Source: Macrostomum lignano
Taxonomy: Eukaryota
Direction of reading: 5' to 3'
Assembly: GCA_002269645.1 (NCBI GenBank)
Contig: NIVC01001674.1
Span: 62,001-126,000, forward strand
DNA: 64,000 nt
Positions within the stretch are counted from its first letter, which is position 1. Each line of letters opens with the position of its first letter. Of the stretch, positions 5,644 through 63,700 are shown in pieces. Both the position numbers and the translations under genes were made by a program. Below the pieces are notes generated by a model. That model saw only the letters and a program-made list of their open reading frames with translations, had not been told where the DNA came from and made no database searches.

Positions 5644-5802
5644 ATGGAAATTGCTAAATCTGCAAGGTTTAGACAAGAAATTTCTCACAAACTTCTAATA
5701 AGGTTAGGCCAAGCTCTAAACGCTACGGTCTGTTGCCTAAAGCTACTGCGAGTAGTCATCAGTGAGTCAATATTTAGTTCCATAACAAACAAAGTGGGAG
5801 CT

Positions 5803-42549: not shown

Positions 42550-45332
42550 ATTTATATAAGTTTGCATAACTGGTTTATAACGTACTTTGTTTTGTTGCTC
42601 AATATTAACTAGCGTATAATTATAATAAATTGCCGCATCGTCATAAGAGTTCGCCGCTCTGATTCAGCACCTCTCGATTTAAAATTCCAATTATGATTTT
42701 CGGTTATTCATTTCATTACATACCGTAAAAAAGTCCAGACGCTCTTTCAAATACCATATTTAATACAAATATTCGTAACTTGTATTCATTCATCATTTAA
42801 AAGTATCCAACCTTTTGAAGAAGAATTAAATACATCGACTTATATTGGCCAAAGAGGCTTTTTGCCTGAGCCAAACTTACCAACTACTACTTCTAAATCT
42901 TGTTTTTTCTCCGCCCCCACCAGGCCCACCTCACTATTTTTTTGACATGCCAGATCCTGATGCATTAAACATATAAGTATAACATCTTGACTTAACAATA
43001 TGCAAGAGACGAGGTGAGTACTAATGCCTGTTGCATTTTTTAGTTTCATTATATGATTATATACAGTGTTTTCTTTTGTAGATAGCACTAATTTATTTAA
43101 CTAATATTAAAATTATAATTAACTGTTAGACTCTTTAGTCTAGACTGATTATTTTGTAAGGCCTATGTTATGTATTTATTAATTTTGGCCCAAGGCCCCA
43201 ACTTTATCATAGTCAGGAATCAGGATCCCATATTGCGGAAGGTTTTCTGTGTACGCTGGACACATTTTTATTAAATTTTCAATTGTACGCCAACAGATTT
43301 TAAATGTACGCCAACTTAAAAATGGTAAAAAAATCAGCGAATGTTTAAATTTAAATTTAAAATACAAAAAATTGATAACGACATGATGATTGTCATGACA
43401 ACTCCGGTAATTAAAATGATTGATATATGAGAAAATAGTAGCAGAAAAAATGGTTTTTGAAATAACTTAACACAGAAAAAGCACAAAAAATTATTTATAT
43501 TAATTTCTATGCTAGTCACATACACGACACCGTATACCACCAGGGTTTTTTGTGTGCAGAGTGTGTGTATGCACCCTAAATTTTAAAGTCGCACCCTGAA
43601 ATTAAAAAAGTAGATGCAGTTTAGGTGTGGTCTTATAACCATTTTTCTTTAAAGGCTTAACCATGCTTAAGCTATTTTTCATGCATTGCCTTAAAATATG
43701 AAACAAAATAACTCTTTAAATCCTATTAAGTCATATAGGCGATATAGCCTATGGTAGGGGTTCCAATGAGGTTTGTGAAATATGTCCCAAAACATGAAAA
43801 ACATGAAAATGTGTCCTACGTAGAATGAAGAAAAAGGTACTAAATTACAAATTATAAATTATAATAGAAACTAGACAAATTATACTTTCCAAAATGTGTT
43901 GAACCTTCTATGTGTCACAAAATGTATGACATAAGAAAAAAGTAATACGTGTCGAAAGTTACCACAAAAAGTGTCACAAATACGAAATGAAGCCCATAGT
44001 CAGGAAGGTGTCCAGTGTATGCCGGAATGAAAATTAAGAAAAAATGTTGTGTACGCCAAAATTGAAAAGCCCTAAAAAAGCGCTTTTTGACGTACGCCAA
44101 AATTGAATAGCCCAAAAAAGCGTACGCCAAAATTGAGGACCCAAAAAATGCTGCAATTTACAGATTTAAAATTTACATATTAATTACCCATTAAAAAGTT
44201 CATTTGTTTTCAGACAACGATTCTGACAGAGACTTATCGGCTCCGACGAATGGACACCGATTACCCTGTTCCCGGCGCCAATCAATCATTTTGATAGATT
44301 CATACTTCTTGCGAGCGCAGGCTTTGGGGTCGAAGAAGAGTGGTCCACGGTGTTGCCGCAAGCTTCTTTGACTGTCGCCAGTGTAATAAAGTTTCGCAGC
44401 TTGTCCCAAGAGTCGCTCATTGGCACTGGTACCCACTGGCGGCAGCATCCAGCGTAGCTTCGTTCTTACCTCGAGCGTGTCATTGAGCTGACCGCCGATT
44501 TTTTGCTGCGAGCGCATTGTCACGTAGTAGGATTCGACAATCGCTTCTAAAAAAACGAAAGTTTCCATAATTACAAAGTATTAAAATTCTGCATACCTAA
44601 AACTTTTCAGACTAGCTCATGCTCACCTGTGCCGCCGCGGTGAAGAGCAAAGTCGAGCAACAGACACGTGGCTTGACCAGCGCGGGAATAAACCCGAGGG
44701 TCCTTGTAAAAAGCCGCGTATACTGCTGACTCGTTAAGCGTGGCGCAGACAGACTCGCCTGGCTCTGTAGTCAGTCGCAGTCGAAGCGCCAGATCGCCTG
44801 ACTTGCGGGGTTCCGCAGAGACCTTAATAATGCGACCCTGTACAGCAGGTGTGAGCCAGTTATCTCGGCCGTCGCCTGAGATGAATGCCTCATGAATAGT
44901 CGTGATAAAAGCCTCCAAATACTTCCGTGATAGGGACGACTTCACGTGCGGTGCGAGATGCTCGTGCTTTTCAGCAAGGCGGACGAGGTGCTTCATCTCA
45001 ACGGCATGAGTTGCATTCTCGACTGCCTCTTCGATGTCCTCGGCAGTCAACAGGCTAACGGCAGATGCTGCATCCAGGACAATTGACGGATCCCTGACGC
45101 AGCATTTCTCCAATCGCGCAAGAAAGGAGCGGTGCAGGCTTGAAGCCAACTGGACTAGGTCCTGGAGAGAATTATAAATATATATAAGTGCGTTAATACA
45201 CTAATCATGACATGACAGAAGTTTATACTTTTACACAGTAGCGGTGCTAAAACTCAGAGTTAAAAATTACCTGCTCCATATCCTGGGACTCTCGGAGTTG
45301 CCAGTCGACCCTGCTGCTTGGCCTACCGGTGC

Positions 45333-46204
45333 TATAGCGCTTCAAGTTTATGTCTCTTCTTCTTCACTTGTAGTTTTCCTATAGTTTGTCTAGCGGTTTA
45401 TTGCAGTCTAAAAGTCTTGAAGGCTATAACTCCTAACGACTATCGAAGCTCAGTATTTTGGCTGGTCGTAGTGATCTCTCTAGATCGTTATCGCTGATCC
45501 TACTTGAGAAAGAACACAAACACAATGATTTTCTAGTTTATCTAAACGGAACTCGAAGTGAGTCTATAATTAACCGGAGCGGTGAATCTTTTTCCGCGCT
45601 CCGCTCCGATATATATAGTGTTTTTAAAACCCCTCGATCCGAGGGGGAGATAATACCATAGCAACAGTACGCATGGGAATTTGGGGTGAGTGAGGTCGCA
45701 GCCTCGAGTCTAGTACAGTTATTGTCATTAAACTAGTTGGTTGGCAGGCACGCCAACCCCTTTCCTTTCATCGATCCCGCCTTCTTGTGCGGACTCGGCC
45801 TCCTCTCGATCTCGTTCCCGATCGGGTCCGGGCGGCTCCAGTTTCTGCTGGGTTGGGTCGATGCAGGCAGCTGCAGGTCGGGGTAGGCCGGGTTGATTCC
45901 GGGAGCTCCATGTCAGCACAGCTGCGTTCCGGTCTCGGGCCATTCCACGTCAGCACAGCTGCGGATCCGGTCTCCAGCAGCTCCACGTCAGCGCCTCTGC
46001 GGATCCGGTCTCGGCCAGCTCCACGTTGGCACAGCTGCTGTCATGCCGAACCGGGCCTGCGCTGAAATGAATAGTTGATCTCTGGGGGCAGATTTTGTCT
46101 AATCATTCTCCTTTCGGTTGCTCGCACCTTCTGCTGTTGCTATTTTTAGTTTTAGTTACCAACTAATGCTCACTTAAATTCCATTCAGATTTCTAAGTCT
46201 TATA
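45333..46204 (-). repeat. 3' LTR
   Basis: About 99% identical to 57458-58329; TATATATA at 45610-45617; AATAAA (minus) at 45402-45397; four 37-38-bp U3 repeats. Confidence 0.97.
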
Positions 46205-46217
46205 TCATCCCCCTTTT
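46205..46217 (-). promoter_or_regulatory. Polypurine tract
   Basis: Minus strand AAAAGGGGGATGA directly abuts the 3' LTR. Confidence 0.85.
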
Positions 46218-46388
46218 GAAGAAATCCTTGACTGGTCAAGGGAGGTGTAGCCTATTGTCTTAATCGAGCTGCTAATCGGCTTACTACTAGTAGATCTGTG
46301 AACATATAAGACGTTTGAAATCTGATACTTGATGAAAACGAAATCAATAAATGTGTTTGACCTGCACCGTAGATAAATATAGTTTTAC

Positions 46389-46751: not shown

Positions 46752-47000
46752 TATAGGTGGCTTTCCTAGGCGTTTTTCTTTTATTCCTTAGGTTATTCTC
46801 CAGGTCTTCCTCGAATTGCTAAACTGTCTACTGTTAGTGAGTCTGTGAATATATAAAACGGTGAAATCTGAGATTGATCCCGTTATTTAATCCCTACTGG
46901 ATATGATATATTAGTGTAATTAATAAACATGGCCAGTTAGTTTTTTTTTCATTATTTAAGCGTCCTGTATGCTGCGCCAGGCTTCAACTTGATATTGGAG

Positions 47001-47261
47001 TCAGTTGCGCCACCAGGCCAGTCGCCCCGACGCCCAAGCCTTGGCTTGGCGAGCGGCGCTACGGATGACGCATTTCATCCAATAGCCCCGACGCCTTGTG
47101 GCCGATGGTGTGTCGTCGGGCCAACTTTCCTCCACGAACCTCTCCAGCTCCATTAATATTCCCACCAGCCGGACCCACCTGCGGTTGTTCATCTCCGTCT
47201 GGTGGATGACGGACTGTTGAGTTCGCATGGTCCCGATGAGTGGGATGTTGACTGTGTTCAT
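47001..47261 (-). CDS. Putative small accessory ORF of the LTR element
   Basis: 86 aa, ATG start, element sense; no domain recognised. Confidence 0.3.
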   Translation of the reverse strand: MNTVNIPLIGTMRTQQSVIHQTEMNNRRWVRLVGILMELERFVEESWPDDTPSATRRRGYWMKCVIRSAARQAKAWASGRLAWWRN

Positions 47262-47951
47262 TGCTAGAAATTTGGATAATGTTTCGGATTCCAGTTTGAA
47301 TGTTATATTTTTGTCTTTTAATCCTACGTTCTCTGTGGCATACTTGTTGCTACTACCTATCTATTGTGATTGATGTTTAAGTTCAATTGAAATGAAGTTA
47401 AACAGAGATAAGTTATGAGATTTTCCAAAAAACCGAAACCAAAATACGATGTATTGATTGCGAATATACGTTCCTTGAGATCTCAAGTGAGTAATAACAT
47501 TTCTGGGACTCTCAGGACAATAACATGACTTAATTCATAGTGTTGTAATGGTTATAGCAGTGTGTCATGTGGTTGTGATTTGCTGGTGCTAGTACGTGTC
47601 GTAGTGAATAAACGTGTCGGAATGAATAATGAATTTGCATATAATAAATACGTGTGCCTCATCATGGAATTCGGTGAAGCCTTGTCTTTGCCTTTCTTCG
47701 CTATTCTAAGCTTGAGTTCACATTGATTGATGGGCCTGGCTTTCCCTAGTTCACTGGTCCGATTGTTCGAGATGTGAATCACCTCCCAACTTTCTTTTAG
47801 TGAACTGGGTTCTGCTTTAAGGATTGCACATTGAGTGAGAGTGCCACAAGGATAGGACGTCCAATCGAATCGTCTTTTCTGTCCTATCGTTGCGTCAGTG
47901 TCTCAGCTCTCGTGTCTCCTTATGCCCCTAACACTTCCGGTCCCTAAGTTC

Positions 47952-48716
47952 CTACTGAGAAGCGGTGGCTTGCGAAGCTTCCAGTGCCATTTTTAGTTGT
48001 GGCCACTGGAGCAGCGCCGGTGAATAAGTGTGGATTACTCGCTTCTCTGCTTCCTGGTTGCTGATACGAATTCCATGATAATTCAACGCTTTACACAGAT
48101 GCTTGGATAACGTGGTGCATATCGCATTGGGTGGTGGGCCCCACGGATGGATCAGATTGACAGCTAGATTATGGCAGAGAACCTTGACTATGACACAGGT
48201 AAAAGCGTCTTGTTCCCCGTAGTGAAAGAAAATTGTTGTTCGGTTACGGAGGATGTTATAGTCCGAGAGGAGCCAGAGTGGGTTATTTTCGTCGGCCAGG
48301 ATGCGCGCTGTTGTTAGGTGCGTCACTACATTGGCTGGGATTCGTGGCGCATCCAGCATGTCCAGGTGAATGTCAAATAGTTTCATCTCACCATGCCGAT
48401 TAGGCTTGCTCTGGATGGACTGTCTGTCCATAAGGTTGTGTAGCATCATGAAGGACAGATCTTTTTCTTCCCGTCTGTAGCTCTCTCTCATTACTGTTGG
48501 GCACAGCGATCGTCCGTGTCTAGATCTTCTGATCTCCCATTGGGTTTGGAGATGTCGCCGTTGCTGTTCGGTGGCGGCGCTGTTCCTAATGTTCATCTCC
48601 TTCCCGACTGCCGTGCTTGGTTCTGCCGACGCAAACAATGGCTTGACCAATGTGTAGGTCGTAAGCGGCTCATCGATGGCGCAATCATCCACTGTGTCTA
48701 GCTCCGTCGAATACAT
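47952..48716 (-). CDS. Accessory ORF of the LTR element, 254 aa, unknown function
   Basis: ATG start 170 bp after the pol stop; element sense; complex composition; intact. Confidence 0.6.
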   Translation of the reverse strand: MYSTELDTVDDCAIDEPLTTYTLVKPLFASAEPSTAVGKEMNIRNSAATEQQRRHLQTQWEIRRSRHGRSLCPTVMRESYRREEKDLSFMMLHNLMDRQSIQSKPNRHGEMKLFDIHLDMLDAPRIPANVVTHLTTARILADENNPLWLLSDYNILRNRTTIFFHYGEQDAFTCVIVKVLCHNLAVNLIHPWGPPPNAICTTLSKHLCKALNYHGIRISNQEAEKRVIHTYSPALLQWPQLKMALEASQATASQ

Positions 48717-48885
48717 CTGATTGTTCGAGGGTGGGTTGAATATTTGTGGGTGAATAAATGGTGACTAGTGATGCAGAGTAATATAAAATATATAATTCTA
48801 AATATCAGAGCGCACACCAACAAGGAAATAAATAGTTAAAATGTAAGATTGTCCGTCTACTTCCTCCCTTCCTTGACCTCAGCTG

Positions 48886-51800
48886 TCAAGGAAGTTTCAC
48901 TTTGTTCCTCAGATTGTATTTCTTCCGAGCCGTGTCCGCCTGCGCGTCCAGCTCCTCTGCCTGCACGCTCACTTCCTTAGTGAATCGCTGCCTTGGCTGT
49001 CGCTGGTGGCGCTGTGGGTCGCTCGGTCTGAGGTCAGGAAGCATCACATGTGGTGTTGACGTGGCCATTGGTTTCAGCCTGTCGGTGTGCTGAAAGGACT
49101 CCTGATTTGGGTCGTCAATTTTCCGGATTGTGACTGAAGTCTGGCTGCTCCTCTTCACAATCTCATAGGGTCCTGTAAATTTTGCCTGGTGCTTTCCCTG
49201 TCTCATGGGGATCTGTAGCATAACTCTACTGCCTACTTCCAATGTAGTCAGCTTGCGATTAGCATTAGCTTTTCCGGTATTCTTCTCTTGAGCTATCTGC
49301 AGGTGATGTCTCGCTATTTCCCTGGCTAGTACGACGGCTTCTTTCATCCTGGCTGCGAATGATGGCTCGTCCATGTACTTTACCAAGTTCAACTGAGTCG
49401 TGAGTTGAGTGGGCATCAGAGGTCTCCGGGCAAAGACTAACTCGAATGGAGAGTAGGTCGACGATGCTTGCTTTGCTGTGTTGTAGGCGAACATCGTTGC
49501 CTGCAGGTACTTGTGCCACTGGTCCGGATTCTCGGCTGTGTAGTGGCGTAACATGTTGTGGAGTGTAGAATGCAGTCGTTCCACATGATTCGCTCGAGGG
49601 TTATATGGGGATGTCAAGATATGTTTGATCCCCAGGATTTCTAAGGCTTCGGCTAGTAGAGTTGCTGTGAAGTTCTTTCCATTGTCCGTGGACATCTCCA
49701 TCGGGATCCCAAAAGTACAGAACACTGTGAATAGTGTCTCGGCCGTCGTTTCAGCTGTGAGATCTGGGATCGGAATAGCGAATGCAAATTTCGAAAAACA
49801 ACAAAGGATTGTGAGAATGTGTGTTACTGTTTCATTTCTCACTTTAGTGGGCACCATTGGACCCACTATGTCAACCGACAATTTGTCCATTGGTCGCATT
49901 GGGACCTCTGAAAACTGGATCAGTCCCTTATGGGTTTTTCCTGATTTATTCTTGGCGCACTCTATGCAGTTGTTACAGAATCCTCGGATGTCGGATACCA
50001 TGGTGATCCAAAAGTAGTGTCTACGGATTCTCTCCAAGGTTTTCTCAAATCCTAGATGTGCCGCTAATGGCAATGCGTGTAGTGAGTGGCAAATGGTCTC
50101 ACGATACTGAAACGGTAGGATGATCTGCTGTGTTTGATCCGCTGTTCTGTGTAGAACGCCTCCAATCTCCGCGTAGTCCGCCAGGTGTCTATCGATGTGG
50201 CGTCTGTACTTCGGAGCCAGTGATTCTACTGCGGATTCTCCGTTCCACATTGCTCGGATTTGCTGGCAAAATGGGTCTTCCGCCTGGGCGTCCTTAAGTG
50301 CTTGCAGGTGTGGGATTGGATGCGATATTGTAACATAATTGATTTGTTCCATTGGTTTCTCGTCGTATAATCTCGAGAGTGCGTCCGGTACTGCATGCGT
50401 GACTGATGCTCCAGGTACATATTTGATCTGTATCTGAAATTGCTGTAAGTATAGTAACCAACGCAAAATTTGGTTGTTCTGCAGTATTCTGCCTGTGAGT
50501 AAGCCTCTGAGTGGGGCGTGATCTACTCTCAGTAGTGTAGGTATGGGAGCAGCGTATAAGAACTGTTCGAAGTTTCTGAATGCATGGTAGACTGCTAGAA
50601 GTTCGAGATGAGTGATTCCGTACCTCGTTTCTGCATCTCTGAGTTGTCTACTCGTGAATGCTATCGGTCTCTCCCGTCCCATCTCATCTTTCTGCGAAAG
50701 CATCGCTCCTATTCCTTTAGTTGAGGCGTCACTCGAGACTATGAACTGTTTGTTGAAATCCGGATGTGCTAGCCTGAGATCCTCGGCTATCCATTTCTTC
50801 ATGGCCTCGAAAGTGTAGTCCGCTTCCTCGGTCCACTTTAGGTTGGTCTTCGTTGCTTGTCCTTTTGAGGTCGGTGCCCCTTTGAGCATATCCGTTAGCG
50901 GTTGTACTTTCTTAGCATAATGTGGGACATGCTTCCTAAAGAAATTACACAGTCCGAGGAATGCTCTTAACTGAGTCACATTATCAGGTTTGGTTACCTT
51001 CTGTACCTTGTCCACTAGAGTGCGGTCTATCTGGATGCCGTTCTGGTCGATCTTGTGTCCCAGGAAGGTAATGCTGGGTTGCGCGAATCGACATTTCTGG
51101 AGTTTCAGCTTTAATCCGTGCTTTTTCAAGGCTTCCAAGGTACTTTTGAGTGTCTTGAGGTGGTGCTCGAACGTTTCCGTGAATACTAGCAAATCGTCCA
51201 CGTATGTAGAGACTCTCTCGATACCTTTGAGGATGATGCTGGCAGCCCTAGACAAAGCGGCCGGGCTCGACTGTAATCCCATCGGCGCCCTTAAGAAGAC
51301 TAGAGTTTCTCCGTCCGGTGTAGAAATTCCGCAGTACTTTCTACTGTCCTCGTGCAGGGCCACTTGAAAGAATGCCTGGGCCATGTCTAGAGTCGTGAAG
51401 TACTTTGATCCTTTGAGTTTGGCCAGCAGATCTGGAATTCTGGGCATACACTGTCTCTCGGGGACCAACAACCGGTTTAAGTCCCTGAAGTCCACGCACA
51501 GGCGATACACCGGTTTGGCGTCTGGCAACTCCGATTTTTTCTTAACGAGGAGAATTGGTGAAATGTACGGTGTCGGTGCTTTCATGAGAATCCCCTGCAT
51601 CTCCATTCTGTCTATCACCTTCTTCAGTTCTCCTGTAAGCTGGTGTGGAATCGGATATCTCTTATTCAGCTTCACTTCCACATTCGGTTTTATGTGGAGT
51701 TCGTGTTTCGCTATTTCTGTAAAGCCTATCTCATCATCTGAGAGACAAAATGCTTCCTTGTTCTCCCAGAGGATCTCTCTTAGTCGTTCTTTCTGCTCTG

Positions 51801-53085
51801 CTGTTATCTCGGCTCCCTGCAGATTAATCGCTTCTCTAAATTCTGTCTCTTTCATTGCCGGTGCCTGTTCCTGATTCACCGCTATTTCATATGTCTCTAT
51901 CTCTGTCTCATACGAACCTATGGCTGTATCCGGGTACAGGGTGATAGGTCTGGCTGATTCGTTAGATATGAGAACGTGTATCTCTCCCTTCTCGTCCGGA
52001 TGAACTATCTCCTGAGTCAGACCTATCGCCTTCTTCTCGACGATACTCCTGTCTGGCTCGAAAAGTACCGTGTCAGGCAATTCCTCCTTTGAGTCGGTTC
52101 TAGCTGTAATTTGAGCTGTTTCCCATGGATTCAGGTTTACCACGGAAACTAGTCTGATCTTATTTGTGGCTTCTTGGGCGGCGACGGTCATGATTTCATA
52201 CGATCTGCCATTTAACTGCATCTGTTGCTGTTGGTAATTGATAGACATTCCCTCCTGCAACTGACTTAGGTAATCAATTCCCAGGAGTGCATGGTATCTC
52301 CCAGAGCTCAAGTTAGGAATGACATGAAACTTAACGTTGACGATTGCGTTTCCTGCTTCGACTGGTAACGTGATCATTCCGGATTGCGTGAGCTTTCCTC
52401 CGTGTACTCCTTGTAGCTCTGTCGTCGGCTTCTCGAAGCTGTCACTGTATCGGCGCGCCGTCGCTTCGTCTATCAGCGACCTCTCTGCTCCGCTGTCTAT
52501 CAGCGCTCTACCGACTCGCGTGCCTATCTTCAGTCGCGTCACCGTGTACTTCTGGCCATTCGTAATTGCTGCCACTATCGGCGGTGGCCATGAGCTGATC
52601 GTCGGATAGATTGATGAAGCCAGTGGAGCAGACGGAATCATCGGTTGATGCTGTTCCGTATTTGTGGCTGGTGCCTCTGGTGCTGGGCGGCGTGGGCCCG
52701 TGTGTCTGTAGCTAGTGTCCGTGCTTGGCTGTACTAACAATTCGTGTTGTTCTCGCGTCGCCTTTATCCGTCTTTGAATGGCCCGAATTCCTGGTCGCTC
52801 GTACTTTTTCCGATAGAGCCTGTGACAAACTATTATGGTTTTGAGTATGATGTAGAAGTATACACAGAGAGCGGCAGCTCCAACGGCTATGTTGAAAATA
52901 TTGAGTTTTATGCCTATCCACGGCATCCAAGATGCGAAGTCATAAGTTTTGAGGGCTATGTTTGCTTCCAATGGTGGGAGGTCGAGCGTCTGTGAAGTCT
53001 TCTGCTTTGGTAGTTTAAATACCGTTCTCAGAAATTCTCTCTGGTCCTTCATCTGCGTGTACAGATCGTGCACTGTAATTGGCCT
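48886..53085 (-). CDS. pol: Env C-terminus/TM anchor fused in frame to Pol (protease, RT, RNase H, integrase)
   Basis: TM IFNIAVGAAALCVYFYIILKTIIVC followed by basic HRLYRKK; PR LIDSGAE; RT YRLCVDFRDLN, LDMAQAF, PMGL, YVDDLLV; RH SDASTKGIGAML; IN HHCC finger, SVDIVGP, STDNG, VERLHSTL, GPY. Confidence 0.97.
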   Translation of the reverse strand, partial: RPITVHDLYTQMKDQREFLRTVFKLPKQKTSQTLDLPPLEANIALKTYDFASWMPWIGIKLNIFNIAVGAAALCVYFYIILKTIIVCHRLYRKKYERPGIRAIQRRIKATREQHELLVQPSTDTSYRHTGPRRPAPEAPATNTEQHQPMIPSAPLASSIYPTISSWPPPIVAAITNGQKYTVTRLKIGTRVGRALIDSGAERSLIDEATARRYSDSFEKPTTELQGVHGGKLTQSGMITLPVEAGNAIVNVKFHVIPNLSSGRYHALLGIDYLSQLQEGMSINYQQQQMQLNGRSYEIMTVAAQEATNKIRLVSVVNLNPWETAQITARTDSKEELPDTVLFEPDRSIVEKKAIGLTQEIVHPDEKGEIHVLISNESARPITLYPDTAIGSYETEIETYEIAVNQEQAPAMKETEFREAINLQGAEITAEQKERLREILWENKEAFCLSDDEIGFTEIAKHELHIKPNVEVKLNKRYPIPHQLTGELKKVIDRMEMQGILMKAPTPYISPILLVKKKSELPDAKPVYRLCVDFRDLNRLLVPERQCMPRIPDLLAKLKGSKYFTTLDMAQAFFQVALHEDSRKYCGISTPDGETLVFLRAPMGLQSSPAALSRAASIILKGIERVSTYVDDLLVFTETFEHHLKTLKSTLEALKKHGLKLKLQKCRFAQPSITFLGHKIDQNGIQIDRTLVDKVQKVTKPDNVTQLRAFLGLCNFFRKHVPHYAKKVQPLTDMLKGAPTSKGQATKTNLKWTEEADYTFEAMKKWIAEDLRLAHPDFNKQFIVSSDASTKGIGAMLSQKDEMGRERPIAFTSRQLRDAETRYGITHLELLAVYHAFRNFEQFLYAAPIPTLLRVDHAPLRGLLTGRILQNNQILRWLLYLQQFQIQIKYVPGASVTHAVPDALSRLYDEKPMEQINYVTISHPIPHLQALKDAQAEDPFCQQIRAMWNGESAVESLAPKYRRHIDRHLADYAEIGGVLHRTADQTQQIILPFQYRETICHSLHALPLAAHLGFEKTLERIRRHYFWITMVSDIRGFCNNCIECAKNKSGKTHKGLIQFSEVPMRPMDKLSVDIVGPMVPTKVRNETVTHILTILCCFSKFAFAIPIPDLTAETTAETLFTVFCTFGIPMEMSTDNGKNFTATLLAEALEILGIKHILTSPYNPRANHVERLHSTLHNMLRHYTAENPDQWHKYLQATMFAYNTAKQASSTYSPFELVFARRPLMPTQLTTQLNLVKYMDEPSFAARMKEAVVLAREIARHHLQIAQEKNTGKANANRKLTTLEVGSRVMLQIPMRQGKHQAKFTGPYEIVKRSSQTSVTIRKIDDPNQESFQHTDRLKPMATSTPHVMLPDLRPSDPQRHQRQPRQRFTKEVSVQAEELDAQADTARKKYNLRNKVKLP

Positions 53086-54621
53086 TCAGATTTCTTCTAT
53101 TTTAATATCAGTTTCTGGTGTAAAGATAATCCGTTTGATATTAGGTAATTTCATAGCCTCTATTCCCCAATCTTCGTTCTTCAATTTCTTTACCTGTATA
53201 AGTTCGAAGCTGGTGAAATTTGAGTCGACCTTGTACACTTTGTCCTCTTTGGGTAACAGGTATCCAGTTCGATTCGAGCAGTCCTGAAAGGTGGGGTGCT
53301 CGGTCTCAATTTCCATAGTTCTTACGTCCAAAAATCCTGTACGGTTGGTTTCCGCTACTTTGTACTTCAACGGAGGTTTGGAGAAACATCGGCTTTGATT
53401 CCAGTGTGGTTGATGGAATTCGAAGTCGGTCACTGGGATGCATTTGAAGATTACGACATGCTGAGCTATCGTTCTGGCCTTGAGGTTCTTGTCTTTGAAC
53501 AGTGTCCTCACCGCTAGTGTTGGTTGCATCCTTATGAAGTCTTTAATGTATCTAAAAATGGTCTGTTGGAGTCGGCATTGTTGAAGGATTACATGACGAG
53601 TCAGATCACCAATTCTGTTTTCCATTGTAAGTTCAACACTCTGTAATTTCGCTGCTAGAGTTTCCTGTGATACCAAGTCTCTCTTTGTCCTCTTTGCTGT
53701 GCTAGAGTTATTAAAATTACCTTGTACTATCGATAAGAATTCTGCTTCGGATCCTTCTAGTTTAACCAACTTTCCTTGTTCTGACCTGAATAGTTTAGTT
53801 GTCGTTCCTCCGCATTTCAGCTCCATTGAGTGTGGTGGGTGTTTAAAAGTCAAAGCGTAGGTAGCGTCCTTGGACATGAACCATCCTGTGTGTATGGTTC
53901 CTTCAATTCGCCTGTCTTCCTGGTACGGGCAGTCAATTGCAGCGCTGGGTGTCCAGGCATATCTGTACTGGCGTTCTCCAGCGACCTTGAATGTTGTGTC
54001 GTAGTATCTCAGAGCTTCCCATAATTTATTGGGTACTTGTCTCTCCAACGGCGCATCCTTCTCGGCCTGTAGAGTGGACTCGTGAAGACATTTTCCTATG
54101 GTGTAATTGCAATGTCCTAGTGGGATATATAGTGATGACATTTTCTTATTCTCCACGAAGAACGGAATTTTCGTTATCAGCGTGGACGCTGATTTCGTAT
54201 ATCTAGTTTGGGTACTAGCCGTTGGGTCGAATTCCTCTGTTGTCCAGATGTGAGTAGTAAAGCGTTCAGCTTTGTTCGGGGCTTTCCCATCTTCTTCGAG
54301 GATGCCATCTGGTGTTCGGTAACCTTCCTCCCAGGACTCACAATCTTCCTCTGAAACTAGATGTTTCTGTACCGTAACAGTCATTTCTGGTCTTACCACT
54401 TTGGCAGCAATCGTTTTCAGTGCTACGCTGGTGAAGACATACGTTTCTCGGTAACAGATCTTGAGTGTTGATCGGTGAGTGACCTGGTTTGGTCTAAAGA
54501 TTGTCAGGTTGATCGGCTGTCGGTGCTGCTGTATACTGCTAGGCATCTTGCACTCGATGTCCGGTGGCAGCTTGAAGATCTGTGGCCTGGAGGGCTCCGG
54601 GCAGTACATCGGTGTGTCCAC
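53086..54621 (-). CDS. env: Envelope glycoprotein ectodomain, class III (herpes gB/chuvirus-like) type by motif
   Basis: 511 aa, Cys-rich, at least 7 N-x-S/T sequons, furin site RTKR. QQC..MQPTLAVRTLF..AR....VIFKCIPV resembles the gB-type fusogen core. In frame with both neighbours. Confidence 0.8.
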   Translation of the reverse strand: MDTPMYCPEPSRPQIFKLPPDIECKMPSSIQQHRQPINLTIFRPNQVTHRSTLKICYRETYVFTSVALKTIAAKVVRPEMTVTVQKHLVSEEDCESWEEGYRTPDGILEEDGKAPNKAERFTTHIWTTEEFDPTASTQTRYTKSASTLITKIPFFVENKKMSSLYIPLGHCNYTIGKCLHESTLQAEKDAPLERQVPNKLWEALRYYDTTFKVAGERQYRYAWTPSAAIDCPYQEDRRIEGTIHTGWFMSKDATYALTFKHPPHSMELKCGGTTTKLFRSEQGKLVKLEGSEAEFLSIVQGNFNNSSTAKRTKRDLVSQETLAAKLQSVELTMENRIGDLTRHVILQQCRLQQTIFRYIKDFIRMQPTLAVRTLFKDKNLKARTIAQHVVIFKCIPVTDFEFHQPHWNQSRCFSKPPLKYKVAETNRTGFLDVRTMEIETEHPTFQDCSNRTGYLLPKEDKVYKVDSNFTSFELIQVKKLKNEDWGIEAMKLPNIKRIIFTPETDIKIEEI

Positions 54622-56289
54622 TCAGTTCTGGTGTCTTGGGTTTATCGTCTCCGCCGTGGTACAGAGCAATGCGAAGAGTAGTATTTTCAGCAGGAGTGCG
54701 CATGTCGGTCCGGCTGGGGCCTTCCAGCCTTCGCTAGCCTGTTTAGCCCTCTGCTCTCGCTTTCGTCCTTCGAGCTGTTGAGCGGTCTGAACTAGGGCGA
54801 TTGTCGCCGTCTTGTTCTTCCTGTTCTGTCGTCTTGCCTGTATGACGTCGCTCCTCGCCCGTGTCGGCGTTGTCGCTTCCATCGTGCTAATTGCCATGAT
54901 GTGCGCTGACTGGCTGGGCTCAATCGCCAATTGAGCTGGCTGCGGACTGGGGTCCTGGGCCGTGACTTCGGCGATCCGCTTTGGCTGCTGCCATTGCTGC
55001 GGATACCGTCCTTGATCACCCTGGCGTGGTCGGCCGCATTCCGATGTCCAATGGTTCTGCATGTTACAGTTCTTGCAATATCGCTGGCCTCTGCACTCCT
55101 TTGCAATGTGGCCTCTCTTTCCGCATTTGTTGCACTTAACGTTACCTCGATCTTGTCTGCCCTGTGACTGCACTTGGCCCCCGGTACTCTTACCGATGTT
55201 CCGGTTACCGATGTTCCGGTTCCTTTGGTAGCACCTGTTGGCTGTGTGGCCTATCTTGTCACAGAGTTGGCATGTCGGCCTTGGGTTGCCGTCTGGGTAC
55301 TTGGTTGCGGCTTCCTTCTGTGGCTGTTGAGCTCGATCTTGGGTGCGCCGGTCCGCTTGCCTGATTGTCGTCTCCATCTGTGCTACCATGGCTGTCAGCT
55401 TGCGTACGTCGTTGGAGTCGTGTTCCAGCTCTCGCAGTGCTTGCCATTGAAGTGCTTCACGCACCATCTCCGGGACCGTCTGGTAACGTCCTCTGGCTAG
55501 ATATAGTCGCAATGCCGGTGTGGCATTCTGTTGCGCGTGCAGCATGATGTGGTCTTGGACTATGCGTTTGTTGCGGTTGATTCTTGCGCCTCTGTCGTTC
55601 TCATTCTCACCCTCCGGTGCTGGTTCTTGGAACACTGAGTTCTCGACTAGTTGTGTGATGTCGGCAATGAACTTGTTAACATCCTCTCCTGGATGCATCC
55701 TCCTCATGGAGAGTTGGAGTACTGCCGTGGGTCGATCCATCGCTCTGGTGTCATACAGCTCTCGGAGTTGTGTTCTCACCTGTCCGTAGTCTTCTCGGAC
55801 AGCTTGTGGGAGTCCCGCGTATTGATTACGGGCGTTAGGACGCAGCATGAGTGGTAGTAGTCGGCACTTCTCTTCGTCCGTTAGGCCATATGTCGCTGTC
55901 TGTAGTTCAAACTCCGTCAGCCATTTGACAAATGGCTGTCCCATTTCGTAGTCTCCTGCCGACAGTTTTAGAGCCTGGACAATGGCTGGTAGGTCCCTGC
56001 CGTGTGCCATGGCGAGACGCTGCTGTAGTTCTCGGACTTGGTTCTGGAGATCATCCATTGCGTTGTCCTCGTTTTCCGAGTCTGATGAGTGCTCGTTGTT
56101 GTCTTCCCACTCGTCGTTGTGGTCTAGCTGGTCTTCTCGCTGATCTAACTGATCTTGTGGCTGTTGTTGTTGATCAACGTCTCCGGGTTCTGGAGTTCTG
56201 TCAGTACCTGTTTGAATGTCTTGGTTTAGAGCTTCGTTATTCATATACTGATATTCCGGTCTATTGGTTCTTTGCGGAGTTGGCCGCAA
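54622..56289 (-). CDS. gag: Gag (capsid-like domain, three CCHC knuckles) ending in a signal-peptide-like segment
   Basis: Likely ATG at 56244; FVKWLTEFE..LTDEEKCRLL capsid-like region; CQLCDKIGHTANRC, CNKCGKRGHIAKEC, CKNCNMQNHWTSEC; C-terminal ALLLKILLFALLCTTA/ET. Confidence 0.93.
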   Translation of the reverse strand: MRPTPQRTNRPEYQYMNNEALNQDIQTGTDRTPEPGDVDQQQQPQDQLDQREDQLDHNDEWEDNNEHSSDSENEDNAMDDLQNQVRELQQRLAMAHGRDLPAIVQALKLSAGDYEMGQPFVKWLTEFELQTATYGLTDEEKCRLLPLMLRPNARNQYAGLPQAVREDYGQVRTQLRELYDTRAMDRPTAVLQLSMRRMHPGEDVNKFIADITQLVENSVFQEPAPEGENENDRGARINRNKRIVQDHIMLHAQQNATPALRLYLARGRYQTVPEMVREALQWQALRELEHDSNDVRKLTAMVAQMETTIRQADRRTQDRAQQPQKEAATKYPDGNPRPTCQLCDKIGHTANRCYQRNRNIGNRNIGKSTGGQVQSQGRQDRGNVKCNKCGKRGHIAKECRGQRYCKNCNMQNHWTSECGRPRQGDQGRYPQQWQQPKRIAEVTAQDPSPQPAQLAIEPSQSAHIMAISTMEATTPTRARSDVIQARRQNRKNKTATIALVQTAQQLEGRKREQRAKQASEGWKAPAGPTCALLLKILLFALLCTTAETINPRHQN

Positions 56290-57437
56290 ATGATATGAAT
56301 GTAAGTGATGCGTATTTAATCAGCTTGACTTCAACAAAATGTCTTGTCAGTGTGCACTCTGATCTATCTTAAGATCTCACAAAAGTTTAAGTGAAATTCA
56401 AATATGAGAAAAGGGGCAGAGGTATCGGATACGTTTCCGGCCAGGTGGTGCTGTCAATATGTAAATTATCTTGCATTTTGTAAATAAATGAGTGCATTTT
56501 TTGTCTCGCTTGTCGTAGATATGCGCGAGGCTAAATAATATGGTTGCAGCATTTTATACACATGCACTTTTAGCGACTAAGCATTTTGCTTTCCCTCTTT
56601 CTGCCTCATTGGCTAGTTGGGCTACGCATTTCAATTTTCATTCCGAAATGCCTCGAGGTTGTCTCATGGACTGGCTACCTAGGTTGGGGGCACAAATACT
56701 TACCCTAACACGCCTTGTAGTAGATCAACAGCGCTATGGGCGGGCTGTCGCGTTTGCTGGAGAGCGGAGTCAGATAGACACAGTGTACAGAGCCTAAGTG
56801 AGTTCTTCCCCCCTCTGTGTCCGCGCAGTCCTTAGTGCCAAGAGTATGAACTCCCCTCAGAAGGTCTACTATCCTACTGAGCCTATTGAAGCGCGCTATA
56901 ATAATGAAAAGCCCTATACGGTGTACTTTTTAATGCTGCTATTCGCCTGACAGGTCCTTTACCTGTGATGAGTCGGCCGGCTCCTGCAAACTCCTTTATA
57001 GTCTAAAGTTTAATCTGTGGTAATGTTGGCCAGCGCTGCCTTAATTCTGTTAATGAGTACACCTTTTGTAATAATTCGACTATAGTCCTATTTAAACAAC
57101 TTCCTGGTAGCCCCTCGCTATTGATGTGCGGCCTTGGTGATTTGCTTCACCAGCCGCTAAATATTTCTCTACTAAGGAAAATCATACCGTAACTTTGTAC
57201 ATAACTATTCTACTTTTTTTTCTTGTTTTTAGAATTCAATCGCATTTTTTTGAGCTTTTTCAATGAGAAACGCACATGTCCTCTTACGACACGATGTATA
57301 GTATACTTAGTAAAGAAACAATTGTATGACAGCACTCATCCTGGCCTTCCGCGTTCCTTCCTCCACCGTCAGAAATTACTCAGCCATTACTGGTCGATGT
57401 CGTCAGGTTGAAAAGTGTAGACTGCTTAATAGATGAC

Positions 57438-57455
57438 TCGTAGGTCTGGGAACCA
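57438..57455 (-). promoter_or_regulatory. Primer-binding site, probably tRNA-Glu
   Basis: TGGTTCCCAGACCTACGA starts 2 nt after the 5' LTR; complementary to a tRNA ending GGGAACCA, as metazoan tRNA-Glu does. Confidence 0.75.
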
Positions 57456-57457
57456 CG

Positions 57458-58329
57458 TATAGCGCTTCAAGTTTATGTCTCTTCTTCTTCACTTGTAGTT
57501 TTCCTATAGTTTGTCTAGCGGTTTATTGCAGTCTAAAAGTCTTGAAGGCTATAACTCCTAACGACTATCGAAGCTCAGTATTTCGGCTGGTCGTAGTGAT
57601 CTCTCTAGATCGTTATCGCTGATCCTACTTGAGAAAGAACACAAACACAATGATTTTCTAGTTTATCTAAACGGAACTCGAAGTGAGTTTATAACTAACC
57701 GGAGCGGTGAATCTTTTTCCGCGCTCCGCTCCGATATATATAGTGTTTTTAAAACCCCTCGATCCGAGGGGGAGATAATACCATAGCAACAGTACGCATG
57801 GGAATTTGGGGTGAGTGAGGTCGCAGCCTCGAGTCTAGTACAGTTATTGTCATTAAACTAGTTGGTTGGCAGGCACGCCAACCCCTTTCCTTTCATCGAT
57901 CCCGCCTTCTTGTGCGGACTCGGCCTCCTCTCGATCTCGTTCCCGATCGGGTCCGGGCGGCTCCAGTTTCTGCTGGGTTGGGTCGATGCAGGCAGCTGCA
58001 GGTCGGGGTAGGCCGGGTTGATTCCGGGAGCTCCACGTCAGCACAGCTGCGTTCCGGTCTCGGGCCATTCCACGTCAGCACAGCTGCGGATCCGGTCTCC
58101 GGCAGCTCCACGTCAGCGCCTCTGCGGATCCGGTCTCGGCCAGCTCCACGTCGGCACAGCTGCTGTCATGCCGAACCGGGCCTGCGCTGAAATGAATAGT
58201 TGATCTCTGGGGGCGGATTTTGTCTAATCATTCTCCTTTCGGTTGCTCGCACCTTCTGCTGTTGCTATTTTTAGTTTTAGTTACCAACTAACGCTCACTT
58301 AAATTCCATTCAGATTTCTAAGTCTTATA
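57458..58329 (-). repeat. 5' LTR
   Basis: Begins TATAAG and ends GCTATA on the minus strand; 8 differences from the 3' LTR counted by eye. Confidence 0.97.
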
Positions 58330-60616
58330 GGTGCGTTGGTTGCCTCGAGCGGTCACCGTGGGCTTGTCCGGCAGTACAAGCCATCCGCCCATCAATTCGA
58401 CCGATTTGAATGAGCCTCCCGGTTTGATGGACTCATAGAAGGGCTGTAAAAATTGAAGTGAAGTAGGAAAGAAATGAATGCGCAAATTTAAGCCCTTTAA
58501 ATATAATTTAAGCCCTTACATATAGGCCCAAATCATTTACCTGCAGTCGTGGGTAATCCTCAACTCGGAAAACCTCTGAGCGATCAGCAAAATGCTTCGC
58601 TACCCGATCGGCCAGCACGGAAACCTTCCAGTGAGGCAACTGGAGGTTCTGAGCCACTTCCATCAGGGAGACTAGTGGACCAAAAAGGTCCTGCAGGCAC
58701 AGCAAGTCAAAAACGAAGTCGCTTCCGAACATTGCATATTGCGACTCTTCGTCATCAGAGCAGCACGGATTTTCTGCTCGAAATGCGGTGTGCAGAGCGG
58801 CGTAACTTGCCTCAATGGCGGACCACTGTCTAAAAAAAGAAGCGTAGTGGGAGGACATTAAATAAATTTTTATTTACCCTTTTCATCACCATTTTTATTA
58901 GACTATTTATTGATAATAGCTGGTACTTACTTGATTGCAGAGCTCGTGAAACGCTGGGCTGCGAAATGCGACATCGCTCGAGCTGAACCGTCTGACGCCT
59001 CTTTCAGTGCTGCCTCACCACGACCATGGCTGAAATAGGTAGCAAAAAAATTCGCTCGCTTTATAAACCGGCGCAATGACTCCCCATCAGGTCCATCGCG
59101 AACATCAGTGACGGCCAGATTCAAGTAGTGTGCCGCATCCCACATCACAGGAATCTTTTCGACGTCATCGACAGGGGCCCCGAGCTCGGTCCGAATAGCG
59201 CGGCAGAATGTGCCAGCTTGGTACTGGCCATCAGCGACGATACCCATGATGCTTGCAGTGGGCGTCTTCAACACCTGATAGATTCAAAATGATGAAATTA
59301 AGCACTCGTCTAATTTAAAGTTTAAAACTGTTAGAATCCCTTCAATCGTCCAAAAAATAATACGTTAGTGACGGTTACCTTAAGTGTCTGCATTAGTCTT
59401 TTGGCCAGGGCTTCCCCATCTGCTTGCATTGCAGAGTCGTACACAGCAGGTGCACCCGCAGGAATCGCTACGGCTTCGCCATTTTCGCAGCGAGCTAGAA
59501 GGAGTGCCGCCTGATTCGTTGTGCGGCCTGGGGTGCTTTTGTCGCAGGTGATGGTCAGCAGAGGCGGCTGTCCAGTCGAAGGCAGAGGACACCGCAGAAA
59601 CTCTGCACTTTCGTCGTTTACGCAGGCGTCTAATAACTTCCAAAGTTCTTTGCAGAATGCACTGTGTAAGGAGGGAGGGTAGGTGAAATGACAAAGTTAT
59701 TATTTATTAAGTATATCTGATTGCATTTAAATAAAATTATTTATAGTGTATAGATATGTTTGCAGGTAAACTTACAAGCCATGGCCAATCTGACCAACTT
59801 CACAATCAGACGCATCGAGCAGACTCATTAGAGTCTCGTAATGCGAACCCGCAGCAGCCATTTCAATTGTCGCAATAGCACAGCGGAGAAGGGTGCGCAC
59901 AACCTTGCCTTGTGCCGTCTGTTGTACGACTTCGGTTCGGTAGTCCTTCACAGCCGAATAGTGGGTCTTGCTTGTCAAACAGTGGTTTACGAGTTCATTG
60001 CGAAATTTGGAGAACTCGTCCACACCACTTAGCAAACCTGCGACTCGTTCGGCTGAAAGTCGTAGCCCTCTGCTGAAGGACTTATTCTTTTCAGTGGTGG
60101 TGGGGTTCCTGGAAAAGTGAAAAGCTCGGTACATTAACACCTTAAGTACTTCTTTAAGACTATCCCGTCTAAACGGACTCTACATACAGTACATATAAAA
60201 AACATTCGACTTACAGAATGCTGTAGATTTGCTCGGCTGTACAGTTGGTAGGCATCAGTTTCGACTTGCAGAGGAACGTGACACAGGGAACGCAGTTAAA
60301 AATCGAGTCACCATTCTCGCACGACTTGAGCGAACAAAACTCAAACTGCAGTAACTCAGCGAAACTATTTGTGGCCGCCACATCATCGTTGCCGAGGTCG
60401 ATTTTGGACTTATTTTCTTGATTGCTGCCCTTACTACATTTAGATGTAGCAACAGCATTGACGGATATATTTTCAAGCAGTTTTTTCATCTGCACAATCT
60501 CCTGCGTCTGTGACTCGAACGCCTTTTGCAGAGCAGTGATCTTCTTAGCCATGTTTTCTGGAGCTGGTGCTGAATCAACAGCTTCGAGTCGCAACTGTAG
60601 ACGACACTGCAGGTCT

Positions 60617-60797
60617 GTCTGCTGCTGCTGACCGGATGACTGCTGCTGACCGGATGACTGCTGCTGACCGGATGACTGCTGCTGATCGGATGACTGCTGC
60701 TGATCGGATGACTGCTGCTGATCGGATGACTGCTGCTGATCGGATGACTGCTGCTGATCGGATGACTGCTGCTGATCGGATGACTGCTGCTGCTGCT
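60617..60797 (-). repeat. 18-bp coding repeat (QQQSSD) within the transposase N-terminal exon
   Basis: GATGACTGCTGCTGATCG about 9 times, in frame. Confidence 0.9.
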
Positions 60798-63700
60798 GTT
60801 CAGACTGATCAACCTCAGCACTCAAGTCGTCCTCTTCGTCTTCCACAGTAGCTACATTTTGCAGGGCACGCTCATTCAACAGCCTTCGAACCTCCTGGTT
60901 ATCTCTTCGAGCGAAATCAGGAGGTGCATGTCCAACACCTTTGCGCCCCTGGTGTTGACTCTTACAGTGCCGATTAAGATCATGTGGAAGACCACGGACT
61001 GTTCGGCAGTTTCGCAAATTTCGACCAGCCCTTTAGCAGGACAAACAGTAGTGCACATCCTGTGCAATTACTCTTTTGGGTTGCTTGGCTTCTAACTGAC
61101 TTGGGCCAGAATTACTAACAGACTTTCGCTTGCGATTGTTAGAATTAGAAATAGGCTGCAGCTGATTTGGGGTTGCAAAAAATCCCCAGCCTTCTTTAAG
61201 ACCTGTCTTAGGACCAGCTGCCTTTGATGAAGTAGAAGCAGCCGAAAAACCTGTTTTAGTGAAAGGGTTTTATTGGGGCTACTTAAGGGGTTTAAAATAA
61301 TGTTGCTATAGAATAGATAGAAAGGGCGGGGATTAATATAATATGGTAATAATGAAAATGGTCTTGGTCTGATGACTCTGATTTTGAATGCTACATACAT
61401 TCTACCTACAGGCACAGCCTACAGCTTTGGATTGCATTGCTACATATATACAAAACTAATTAACTAACTGTATTGTCTAAGAAAAGTAAGTCAAAAATTT
61501 ATAATAAGTCAACAATAAAATAAAGTTAAGTATGAGTATGGCAGTATCAGCTATCACCTATCAATCACTATCAAATCAATGTATGAGTCAGAGTCAGATC
61601 TCATGTAAATAATAGAATGTGAAATTAAACAATATACATACTTTATACTTATTGATGTTTGACTACACTACACTAAAATAGAACATATACATATATTGGA
61701 TTTGGATTGGATAAAAACTGGCCTACTTGTCGGAATCTGACAATCAATAACAATAACATGAATCATCATGAATGAATGACTAGACTTAAGACTTAATGAC
61801 TAGACTTGTCAATGTTAACAAAAGTATAGGCAAGGCTGTAGCCTGTAGCCTGTACTGTATGTATCATGTATGCTATGGGCATGGCTGCATTAGCTGATTA
61901 GCATAATATATTTAAAAGCAAAATTTGAGAATCAAGGCTATTCATATTGGTCCCTAGCTCAATGTTTAATATTCTGTCTAAAATTTATTTTCTTCAGAAC
62001 TTATAATTTATAATAAAAGATAAGAAAAGAATATTGAAAACAGGCAATTAGCAAACAGGCCACACTTACTAGAATCAATAGCTGAGCTAAGTGAGCTTGA
62101 AGTTGAATCCAAAGCTTTATCAATAGCATTGACATTATCAGAAGAAACTTCCATCTCCTCGACCTCGTCCTCAGTGTCAGTGTCAGTGACAGTGACAGTG
62201 TCACTAGTTTCCATTGGTGTTGCAACTTGCAATGGTATGGTTAAAGTTTCTGAGCCGATGAGCCTGGCTATATCAACACGACAACACAGTCGAGTCAACA
62301 CTGAATATTTATATTTCACTTCCTTCCTTGTGGATTCGATTGTGCTTACAAAGTTACACACAAGTTACACAACACAAGACAAGACAACAAGCGAAGCAAT
62401 CAGTATATTAGTATATACAAATACAATAATAATAGTTGCAAAAATCCAGGAGAGAGAACAGATCAATTTGAATGGTCTGAAGAACGAACTTGAAGAAGAC
62501 GAACTCGACGACGAAATTGCTAACAAATGTAATAAAATAAAACTGCAAATGCGCGAAATTTGCAACTTAAATCTTAACTTACCTGTATGTCATCTGTTGT
62601 AACGTGAAGAAATCTAAAATACTAAAGTAATTATTGTACAGAATTAGTTAATAAGTTAAAATAAATAACTGACTTACACAAAACTTTAGTAAAGTTTTGT
62701 TAACAATAAATCAGATTCAAAATTTACGTAATTTCAGCGTTTTAAAGATGAAAATAGATTTACCAATTCACTAAAATTGAACGATATACAATACTTTGTC
62801 GAAGTAATTGGGTTGTTTGCAGGTTTTTTAAACGTTTGTTCTTACGCCAATCACATGCAAATATTGTAGGCCGATTTTTGGACAGATTTTTCATGCGAAA
62901 ACTGTGTTGTGTACGCCAAGAACTCTGTACGCCATTTTTCGGACCGCGTGTACGCGAAACTGTACGCCATTTTTTTTGGGGGGGGGCTGATGTACGCCGG
63001 AAAATTCCGGCGTACGGACACCTTCCTGACTATGGAATGAAGCCAATTGTAAAAATGAGGGTTCATATGGCCAATTGAAATATCACCTTAAAGCGTGCTA
63101 GGAATAACAAATTAAATGAAAGGAATGAATAAAGGATATAGTAAAGCACAAATTTTGCAATAAAAAAATGAAAAAAAATTTCTAAGGCCCCTCTACTGTC
63201 AGTTAAAAATTTTCAATACGTTTTTCTTTGTGTTGTCATGAAAGGCCGTATTTTAAACAATTCAATTTGATATGCGGGTAACCTTTGCTCCATTTTGCCA
63301 AAAAGAGGCATCTCGGATGACTTGCCGCAAGGCAGCTGAGCCTCTGATGCGGAGATGAGGAAATTAAACATGTTTAATATGCAGATTTCCATGCTGAATG
63401 ACATGGTATAAGTCCCATTGCATGAAAGTTTGCCGCAAGGTTAATATTTAAGTTAACCTGCCAAAAAATGCGCGTCTACTTGTAGTAGATAAATGGTAAA
63501 TTTGCAGATTTTTTTTGTTTTTTTTATTTTGCTTTTTTCGATCAATATTATGTCCTTAATGAAACTGAATGCAAAGAGGGCATGTATAGGAACGTTGAAA
63601 GGTTTAAATAGTTATATAAACTTATAAAGTTTTTTTTGGGGGTCAACAAGGGAGGCTTCCGTTGGAAAGTCGCTGGATATTTAGACCCTAGCACAAGACG

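Follow-up and report, generated by a model that had tools for sequence, protein, structure and literature searches.

We analysed a stretch of 64,000 nucleotides from the genome of the flatworm Macrostomum lignano (contig NIVC01001674.1, positions 62,001 to 126,000; hereafter the window), in which a Ty3/gypsy long terminal repeat (LTR) element of 12,997 bp lies on the minus strand at 58329-45333. The element carries an envelope (Env) sequence that an earlier reading, made from the sequence alone, had described as a captured class III fusion glycoprotein of the gB or chuvirus kind. From genes and models we propose, with a probability of roughly 70%, that Env is the class III trimeric fusion domain of an element that encodes Gag, Env and Pol in one frame, and that it likely lets intact members exit and enter cells in enveloped form. 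Coordinates are positions in the window, and the strand is given for each feature; G000 denotes the M. lignano genome contigs that were searched, L-numbers are loci or stretches taken from them and P-numbers are database proteins. One ORF of G000, from a related family, has the identical sequence of a protein annotated as Macrostomum lignano.

Gag, Env and Pol share a single reading frame

The sequence-only reading had placed env at 53086-54720. Env does not stand as a gene of its own, as it shares its frame with gag and pol. One reading frame on the minus strand (56319-48886) runs through Gag, a signal-like segment, Env, a transmembrane (TM) segment, a cytoplasmic tail, protease (PR), reverse transcriptase (RT), RNase H (RH) and integrase (IN), and is interrupted by two in-frame TGA codons. 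Both stops lie within the range proposed for env, whose 3′ end, placed at the second stop, omits the last helix, the TM segment (52899-52843) and the tail. In the order of translation, the frame contains the following features.

54625..56244, minus strand: gag, capsid-like, with a CCHC knuckle at ~55137-55090 (zf-CCHC, E 4.4e-5), continuing into the Env signal sequence
54661..54702, minus strand: hydrophobic core of the predicted internal signal sequence, with basic residues before it
54622..54624, minus strand: in-frame TGA (break 1), private to the window copy among the G000 copies examined
53089..54621, minus strand: Env ectodomain, predicted class III (gB/nyamivirus-G-like), 12 Cys, 8 sequons
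53680..53691, minus strand: furin-type site RTKR; R-x-[KR]-R stands ahead of the central helix in 17 of 17 sequences
53527..53667, minus strand: central helix of 47 residues, domain III, predicted trimer core
53086..53088, minus strand: in-frame TGA (break 2), private to the window copy among the G000 copies examined
52900..53085, minus strand: remainder of the ectodomain (domain V helix, membrane-proximal region), low model confidence
52843..52899, minus strand: transmembrane anchor, Kyte-Doolittle 2.25 over 19 residues
52597..52842, minus strand: cytoplasmic tail, ~80-84 residues, with late-domain-like PSAP (52635-52624) and YPTI (52608-52597)
52252..52542, minus strand: aspartic protease (LIDSG; RVP, E 4e-6)
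51049..51543, minus strand: reverse transcriptase, YVDD at 51204 (RVT_1, E 6e-28)
50437..50760, minus strand: RNase H (Pfam)
48886..50112, minus strand: integrase (H2C2, core and C-terminal region; Pfam), to the end of the frame

Comparison with eight other loci showed that the frame is open in all seven that cover break 1 and in all eight that cover break 2. These TGA codons are absent from the sister copies, and are damage specific to the window copy. Assembly error alone does not account for them, since both stops recur in contigs of sequencing run X16 (possibly the source of the window itself) and the first recurs in a contig of run X15, from another study; contigs of runs X17 and X2 contain neither. 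Unless the stops are read through, the window copy would yield only Gag plus the signal segment, and no Env or Pol.

Three env copies make up the window family at an identity of at least 97%. Across G000, 17 of the 84 env matches sit in open frames of 2,370-2,866 codons. A CCHC knuckle, env, PR and RT occurred together in one frame in 12 of 40 fetched stretches, which had been chosen from the 84 matches with long frames favoured, and the RT of these families is 37-84% identical to that of the window. No sequencing run that matched was recorded as RNA. No joint removing env was found in contigs spanning gag-env-pol from runs guessed to be RNA, a result that is uninformative on expression or splicing. 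Synonymous divergence from the sister copy (window 48889-56319 versus L010/L011) was uneven, amounting to 0.08 in env, 0.29 in RT-RH and 0.42 in IN, which suggests recombination between sister lineages.

Env is predicted to form a class III trimer

The Cys-spaced, glycosylated ectodomain described from the letters alone was borne out. It holds 12 Cys, each invariant in all 15 G000 env sequences, and eight N-glycosylation sequons (NLT, NYT, NNS, NSS, NQS, NRT twice and NFT), where at least seven had been noted and shuffled sequences gave a mean of 2.6 (P=0.002). The RTKR site (53691-53680) and the motifs QQC (53583), QPTLAVRTLF (53526) and VIFKC (53454), also pointed out earlier, were all located. 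The PTL..AR..C motif, which had been called typical of the gB-like and chuvirus-like glycoproteins captured by LTR elements, shows conservation of 90% or more at its P, R, A and C over an alignment of 88 rows, and aligns with domain III/IV of herpes simplex virus (HSV) gB. Signal, sequons and TM segment of a glycosylated type I membrane protein are all present, split in the window copy by the two stops. The same set of basic residues and hydrophobic core, furin site and TM segment recurs in families that share only 36-41% RT identity with the window, with 126-152 residues between the TM segment and the protease motif. In the L028, L030 and L031 families, a Thr/Pro-rich, mucin-like stretch of 210-270 residues is inserted ahead of the furin site of Env, which has 14 Cys in total, two of them extra.

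Several methods agreed on a class III, gB-like fold, as had been proposed. Env matched Pfam PF24664, the Monjiviricetes fusion family that includes chuvirus G, with an E value of 4.6e-10, and so did 12 of the 15 G000 envs. A profile built from these 15 sequences returned gB as its top 13 matches among PDB sequences, although weakly (best E 0.021). As a single sequence, Env gave only chance matches among PDB sequences and no match at near or longer lengths among 5.8 billion proteins; profiles were required. An Atlas search returned PF24664 at 0.91, a weak match of low recognition. The AlphaFold model, computed from the 88-row alignment with break 2 read as X, had a mean pLDDT of 79.9 and a pTM of 0.57. 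When it was compared with the PDB by Foldseek, the best match was human cytomegalovirus gB (E 8.2e-22) and all 35 rows listed were gB, with no non-viral, class I or class II fold among them; VIA-align superposed the model on gB with a Z of 13.5 (rmsd 10.5, 415 residues aligned). Three copies of residues 225-510 were predicted to assemble into a parallel central-helix trimer with a score of 0.49, compared to 0.00 for the best control, and at least 89% of contacts agreed between runs at a pLDDT of at least 62. Of 30 solved pairs 20 attain the mark used for this call, as does 1 of 23 single chains, and likeness to solved gB may explain the pass. Taken together, Env is predicted to have a class III, gB/nyamivirus-G-like fold and to be trimeric.

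The chuvirus part of the original description holds only loosely. Chuvirus glycoproteins belong to PF24664 and occur among the structural matches in BFVD, but nyamivirus G ranks above them: the best match was Nyavirus midwayense G (E 1.2e-26) and entries labelled as chuvirus first appeared at rank 19 of 50. Identity to the viral structural matches was 8-16%. San Jacinto virus G, from a nyamivirus, was found by the G000-only profile with an E value of 3.1e-15, and is the one named viral sequence match that was looked up. The closest viral matches are thus nyamivirus G rather than chuvirus G, as far as searches go; the tree described below contains no chuvirus G.

A membrane-threaded polyprotein would deliver Env and Pol

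In the mechanism that we propose, one transcript from the 5′ LTR would be translated into one polyprotein. Gag would be made in the cytosol and stay there, whereas the internal signal, with its basic residues followed by a hydrophobic core, would thread Env into the endoplasmic reticulum until the TM segment stopped transfer and returned the tail with PR-RT-RH-IN to the cytosol. Signal peptidase, furin (at RTKR) and the element's own protease would cut the chain. P[TS]AP and YPx[IL] in the tail may recruit the endosomal sorting complex required for transport (ESCRT) for budding, and Pol, being joined to the Env tail, would be carried into the particle by that link and not by a Gag-Pol fusion. 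The structural polyproteins of alphaviruses and flaviviruses are separated into their parts in much the same way. The two tail motifs, which we take to resemble retroviral late domains, were each present in six of eight G000 tails (0.27 expected by shuffling for P[TS]AP and 0.34 for YPx[IL]), tails that are related and so not independent. A literature search on late domains listed only reviews on retroviruses.

Env is under purifying selection and its capture appears ancient

To judge from codon substitutions, env is under purifying selection. It differs from the sister copy by 29 synonymous and nine non-synonymous changes (dN/dS 0.09, approximate Fisher p 2e-12); two sister copies give the same figures and may not be independent. 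In five pairs of other families dN/dS was 0.06-0.13, and dS against a 62%-identical family was saturated.

We also compared the env and RT phylogenies, as the sequence-only reading had suggested. Both analyses recover the G000 families as a single clade, with support of 95/92 for RT and an SH-aLRT of 99 for env, and agree on how the database polyproteins are grouped; L028 changes its placement. The env tree is a quick version that lacks bootstrap values and has long branches; P0056, in which no RT motif could be matched, was left out, and both trees hold G000 sequences and search matches only, with no chuvirus G or reference Ty3/gypsy RT. Since env co-diverged with RT and is under purifying selection, its capture is ancient. 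The word "captured" therefore stands for an old event, and not for a fresh one.

A profile search for env returned 413 relatives at an E value of at most 0.001, and the nearest sequence relatives of Env were other retroelement polyproteins. CCHC, env, protease and RT followed one another in that order in a single chain in 10 of the 156 proteins examined, including a Caenorhabditis protein (P0086); Globodera protein P0056 has the same domain order by Pfam. Database proteins P0007 and P0077 are arranged differently, with a protease domain preceding an env of the same family. The earlier description of the element as enveloped and potentially infectious is plausible for the lineage as judged from its genes; the window copy could not be so without read-through.

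Candidate fusion loops are polar, and other readings have to be weighed

Two candidate fusion loops and a helical insert were assigned in the ectodomain.

54412..54432, minus strand: candidate fusion loop 1, hairpin tip aliphatic, no aromatic residue
54211..54243, minus strand: candidate fusion loop 2, acidic/polar, one Phe
53974..54072, minus strand: helical insert of ~36 residues, present in 15 of 15 G000 envs and missing in 56 of 57 database relatives

Several observations weigh against the account of Env preferred here. Class III fusion loops are described as carrying key aromatic residues (PMC10866366), and loop 1 of the window contains no F, W or Y, whereas at least one is found in 37 of 38 database relatives. 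Loop hydrophobicity, scored with the Wimley-White interfacial scale, placed the window, L010 and L015 as the last three of 52 rows and L012 fifth from last; only rows with the three anchor Cys entered the loop comparisons (53 and 52 of 86). The loops themselves were assigned from predicted secondary structure and alignment, not from coordinates. The model superposes on gB with low TM-scores (0.32-0.39, rmsd 12-19 Å). Among 26 database tails, P[TS]AP was present in no more than three (0.22 expected; eight of 34 proteins had been dropped for want of a clear TM segment or tail), and is therefore not general to this kind of protein. Finally, purifying selection shows that env has a function, not that this function is fusion. 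Low loop hydrophobicity was also seen in the L028, L030 and L031 families, while L018-L027 and L042 keep Trp/Tyr-rich loops. The insert measures 36-39 residues across G000 envs and is predicted to contain an aromatic-rich helix.

These observations could be accommodated if the gB-fold Env were kept for a non-classical role, as a membrane scaffold for Pol and the budding motifs, in vesicle export, or in a form that needs a partner or the insert. Such a role would agree with candidate loops that stay polar and non-aromatic in the 62%-identical sister family despite a dN/dS of 0.09, with an aromatic-rich helical insert peculiar to the G000 envs but for one database relative, and with the late-domain-like tail. 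We nevertheless think it unlikely, because nothing of the class III architecture has been lost (12 Cys, furin site, central helix and predicted trimer), loop 1 retains aliphatic residues, other G000 families with the same layout (L018-L027, L042) have aromatic loops, and acidic loops might be protonated at low pH. Equally tentative is the idea that the lineage keeps a folded, selected gB-type Env without aromatic loops and has either found a new fusion route, by way of the insert, low-pH protonation or a host partner, or uses Env as a scaffold for ESCRT and Pol, together with an Ulp1-fold protein that would counter SUMO-based silencing. We prefer to see Env as the fusion domain of the polyprotein, and note that the polar loops, as assigned here, weaken the inference of infectivity for the window family.

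The remaining explanations are far less probable. The two stops could be programmed read-through sites that set the ratios of Gag, Env and Pol, since both are TGA, one falls where Gag passes into Env and the other close to the ectodomain's end, and a single open frame would otherwise give a 1:1:1 stoichiometry. However, neither is found in the 97%-identical sister copies, in any of the more distant families examined or in the X17 and X2 contigs, and break 2 separates the ectodomain from its TM segment; their 3′ contexts are not known to be leaky. With stops private to the window copy, this candidate is largely refuted and we give it very little credit. That a chuvirus glycoprotein gene was captured recently, by an Anakin-like event or as an insertion of an endogenous viral element, would account for the PF24664 match and for chuvirus glycoproteins among the BFVD matches, but is highly improbable: env occupies the same position in the frame across families with only 24-31% env identity, these families form one clade in both trees, the viral matches are remote and led by nyamivirus entries, and the nearest sequence relatives are retroelement polyproteins. 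Hardly more credible is that the element is intact and the stops arose by misassembly, or that env is a domesticated host gene. Many G000 copies do contain scattered frameshifts, some of which may be sequencing errors, but contigs of X16 (possibly the window's source) repeat both stops and the X15 contig from another study repeats the first, and an insertion site that also exists as solo-LTR and empty alleles does not fit domestication. Against these alternatives, we retain the class III fusion domain of a one-frame Gag-Env-Pol element as the best account of Env.

Comparison with known elements and glycoproteins

The presence of a gB-like env in a gypsy element has already been published, and the window family is an uncatalogued family represented here by a young, broken copy. 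Chary and Hayashi (eLife 2026, PMC13524379) describe GAG-ENV-POL 'ancient errantiviruses' with an HSV/gB-type ENV in Platyhelminthes, Bryozoa and Nematoda, with a bridge of RNase H plus 'mini' domain, and state that the cell entry of gB-carrying errantiviruses is unknown. Their elements and ours share a Ty3/gypsy pol, a gB-type env between gag and pol, LTRs with a primer-binding site (PBS), the host species and a trimeric ectodomain of five domains, predicted in our case, that lies between a signal/TM segment and a TM segment. In contrast, the fusion loops of gB-type errantiviruses are there called 'highly conserved' and hydrophobic, whereas those of the window family are polar. The main text of PMC13524379 does not use the words 'polyprotein', 'fused', 'late domain' or 'ESCRT'. 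New here are the polar loops, the G000 insert and the late-domain-like tail motifs, with the reservation that the figures of PMC13524379 may already show these loops.

The supplement of that paper lists one M. lignano family, Platyhelminthes_Rhabditophora_Mlig_errantivirus_2, and 51 ENV hits for the species. The PBS 12-mer of Mlig_errantivirus_2 is present in L026, L027, L039, L044, L072, L073 and L075 (24-26% env identity), and not in the window family; a pattern search for the catalogued PBS behind a TATA end gave no match. Mlig_errantivirus_2 has 16 copies at >98% identity, compared to the three env copies at an identity of at least 97% in the window family. By sequence, the window family is not Mlig_errantivirus_2.

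Nematode endogenous retroviruses (NERV; Sacco et al. 2022) reportedly have a continuous gag-env-pro-pol open reading frame (ORF), a nyamivirus-like env and accessory ORFs and form a nematode-restricted monophyletic clade. As here, their Env precedes pol, according to a paper that cites them. They differ in host, which here is a flatworm; nematode protein P0086 falls outside the G000 clade in both trees, and the insert of the G000 envs sets these apart from nematode proteins of NERV layout, being missing in 56 of the 57 database relatives. In an alignment that included P0104, Env shares with nyamivirus G the PMxC start, the Cys pattern and the PTL..R motif. Identity is ~17%, however, and nyamivirus G, which has aromatic loops, stands alone as a type I membrane protein encoded by a negative-strand RNA virus. 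The likeness to herpesvirus gB comprises the modelled fold, the long central helix, the furin site before it and the predicted trimer, at 10-14% identity and with a shorter ectodomain here. Moreover, gB requires gH/gL (PMC10866366), and the element has no counterpart of these.

A literature search for an LTR retrotransposon envelope in Macrostomum, and for gag-env-pro-pol, found no paper. M. lignano is a laboratory model, and it holds several such families, with both aromatic and polar loops and with polymorphic insertions. It is therefore directly testable there whether a membrane-threaded Gag-Env-Pol polyprotein gives rise to enveloped particles, and also what a class III protein minimally needs for membrane fusion.

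The insertion is young and polymorphic

LTRs, a PBS-like site, a polypurine tract, a target-site duplication and the pol order PR-RT-RH-IN place the element in Ty3/gypsy (Metaviridae). Its ends comprise the following features.

58330..58334, no strand: 5-bp target-site duplication, 5′ side; at the joint of the empty site, 5 letters fit both sides
57458..58329, minus strand: 5′ LTR, 872 bp, TATA...TATA ends, 99.08% identical to the 3′ LTR
57443..57455, minus strand: PBS-like 13-mer beginning TGG, 2 nt behind the LTR, common to sister copies L063 and L065
46205..46217, minus strand: polypurine tract
45333..46204, minus strand: 3′ LTR
45328..45332, no strand: 5-bp target-site duplication, 3′ side

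A tRNA pattern search gave no match for the PBS-like 13-mer; tRNA-Glu is our unconfirmed guess at the primer. The two LTRs differ at 8 of 872 bases, and all eight differences (45333-46204 versus 57458-58329) are transitions, six of them in CpG (P ~1e-4), the pattern expected of methylation-driven decay of a silenced insertion. Three alleles exist at the same site: the full element (45328-58334); a solo LTR in L062 (G000:C2376), 98.9% identical and set between the same flanks, which are 98.8-99.7% identical over kilobases; and an empty site, seen in contigs from two of four public runs that join both flanks and skip 13002 bases, with five letters fitting both sides. The near-identity of the LTRs, together with the solo-LTR and empty alleles, marks the insertion as young and polymorphic and the element as recently active.

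The 3′ flank of the C4628 copy (L063/L064, G000:C4628) matches the 5′ flank of the C2598 copy (L065, G000:C2598) and not its own, possibly through a mis-join or recombination, and these two insertions may not be independent.

Accessory open reading frames and neighbouring sequences

Downstream of pol, the element contains one further ORF.

47952..48716, minus strand: accessory ORF of 254 aa, open in sister copies, with a weak hint of an Ulp1/C48-protease fold

It is under purifying selection, with a dN of 0.12 and a dS of 0.42 compared with L011. A search of 5.8 billion proteins gave no match, and its model had a pLDDT of 42. By VIA-align the best Z was 5.0, for a NEDD8 protease tied with an unrelated arenavirus domain and within background; six of 50 rows were C48/CE-clan proteases, judged by their titles. 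Atlas returned C48 clusters at 0.90, with family shares of 17% and 38%. An Ulp1/C48 protease is thus a lead only, weakly hinted at by these models. In other Gag-Env-Pol families the place 3′ of pol is taken by one or two ORFs with a RING finger (L019:1303-2091, L026:8540-9289, L027:7940-9353, L042:7956-9299), with Sina_RING in five of nine rows.

Elsewhere in the window, long satellite arrays with units of 8-12 bp, 35 bp and 23 bp occupy 1-6000 and 18800-20900, and a long inverted repeat resembling a miniature inverted-repeat transposable element (84% over 322 bases) lies at 40486-40798. Fragmented ORFs are found on both sides of the insertion (58500-61400 and 44200-45200), and give the impression of a decayed DNA transposase gene split by the element.

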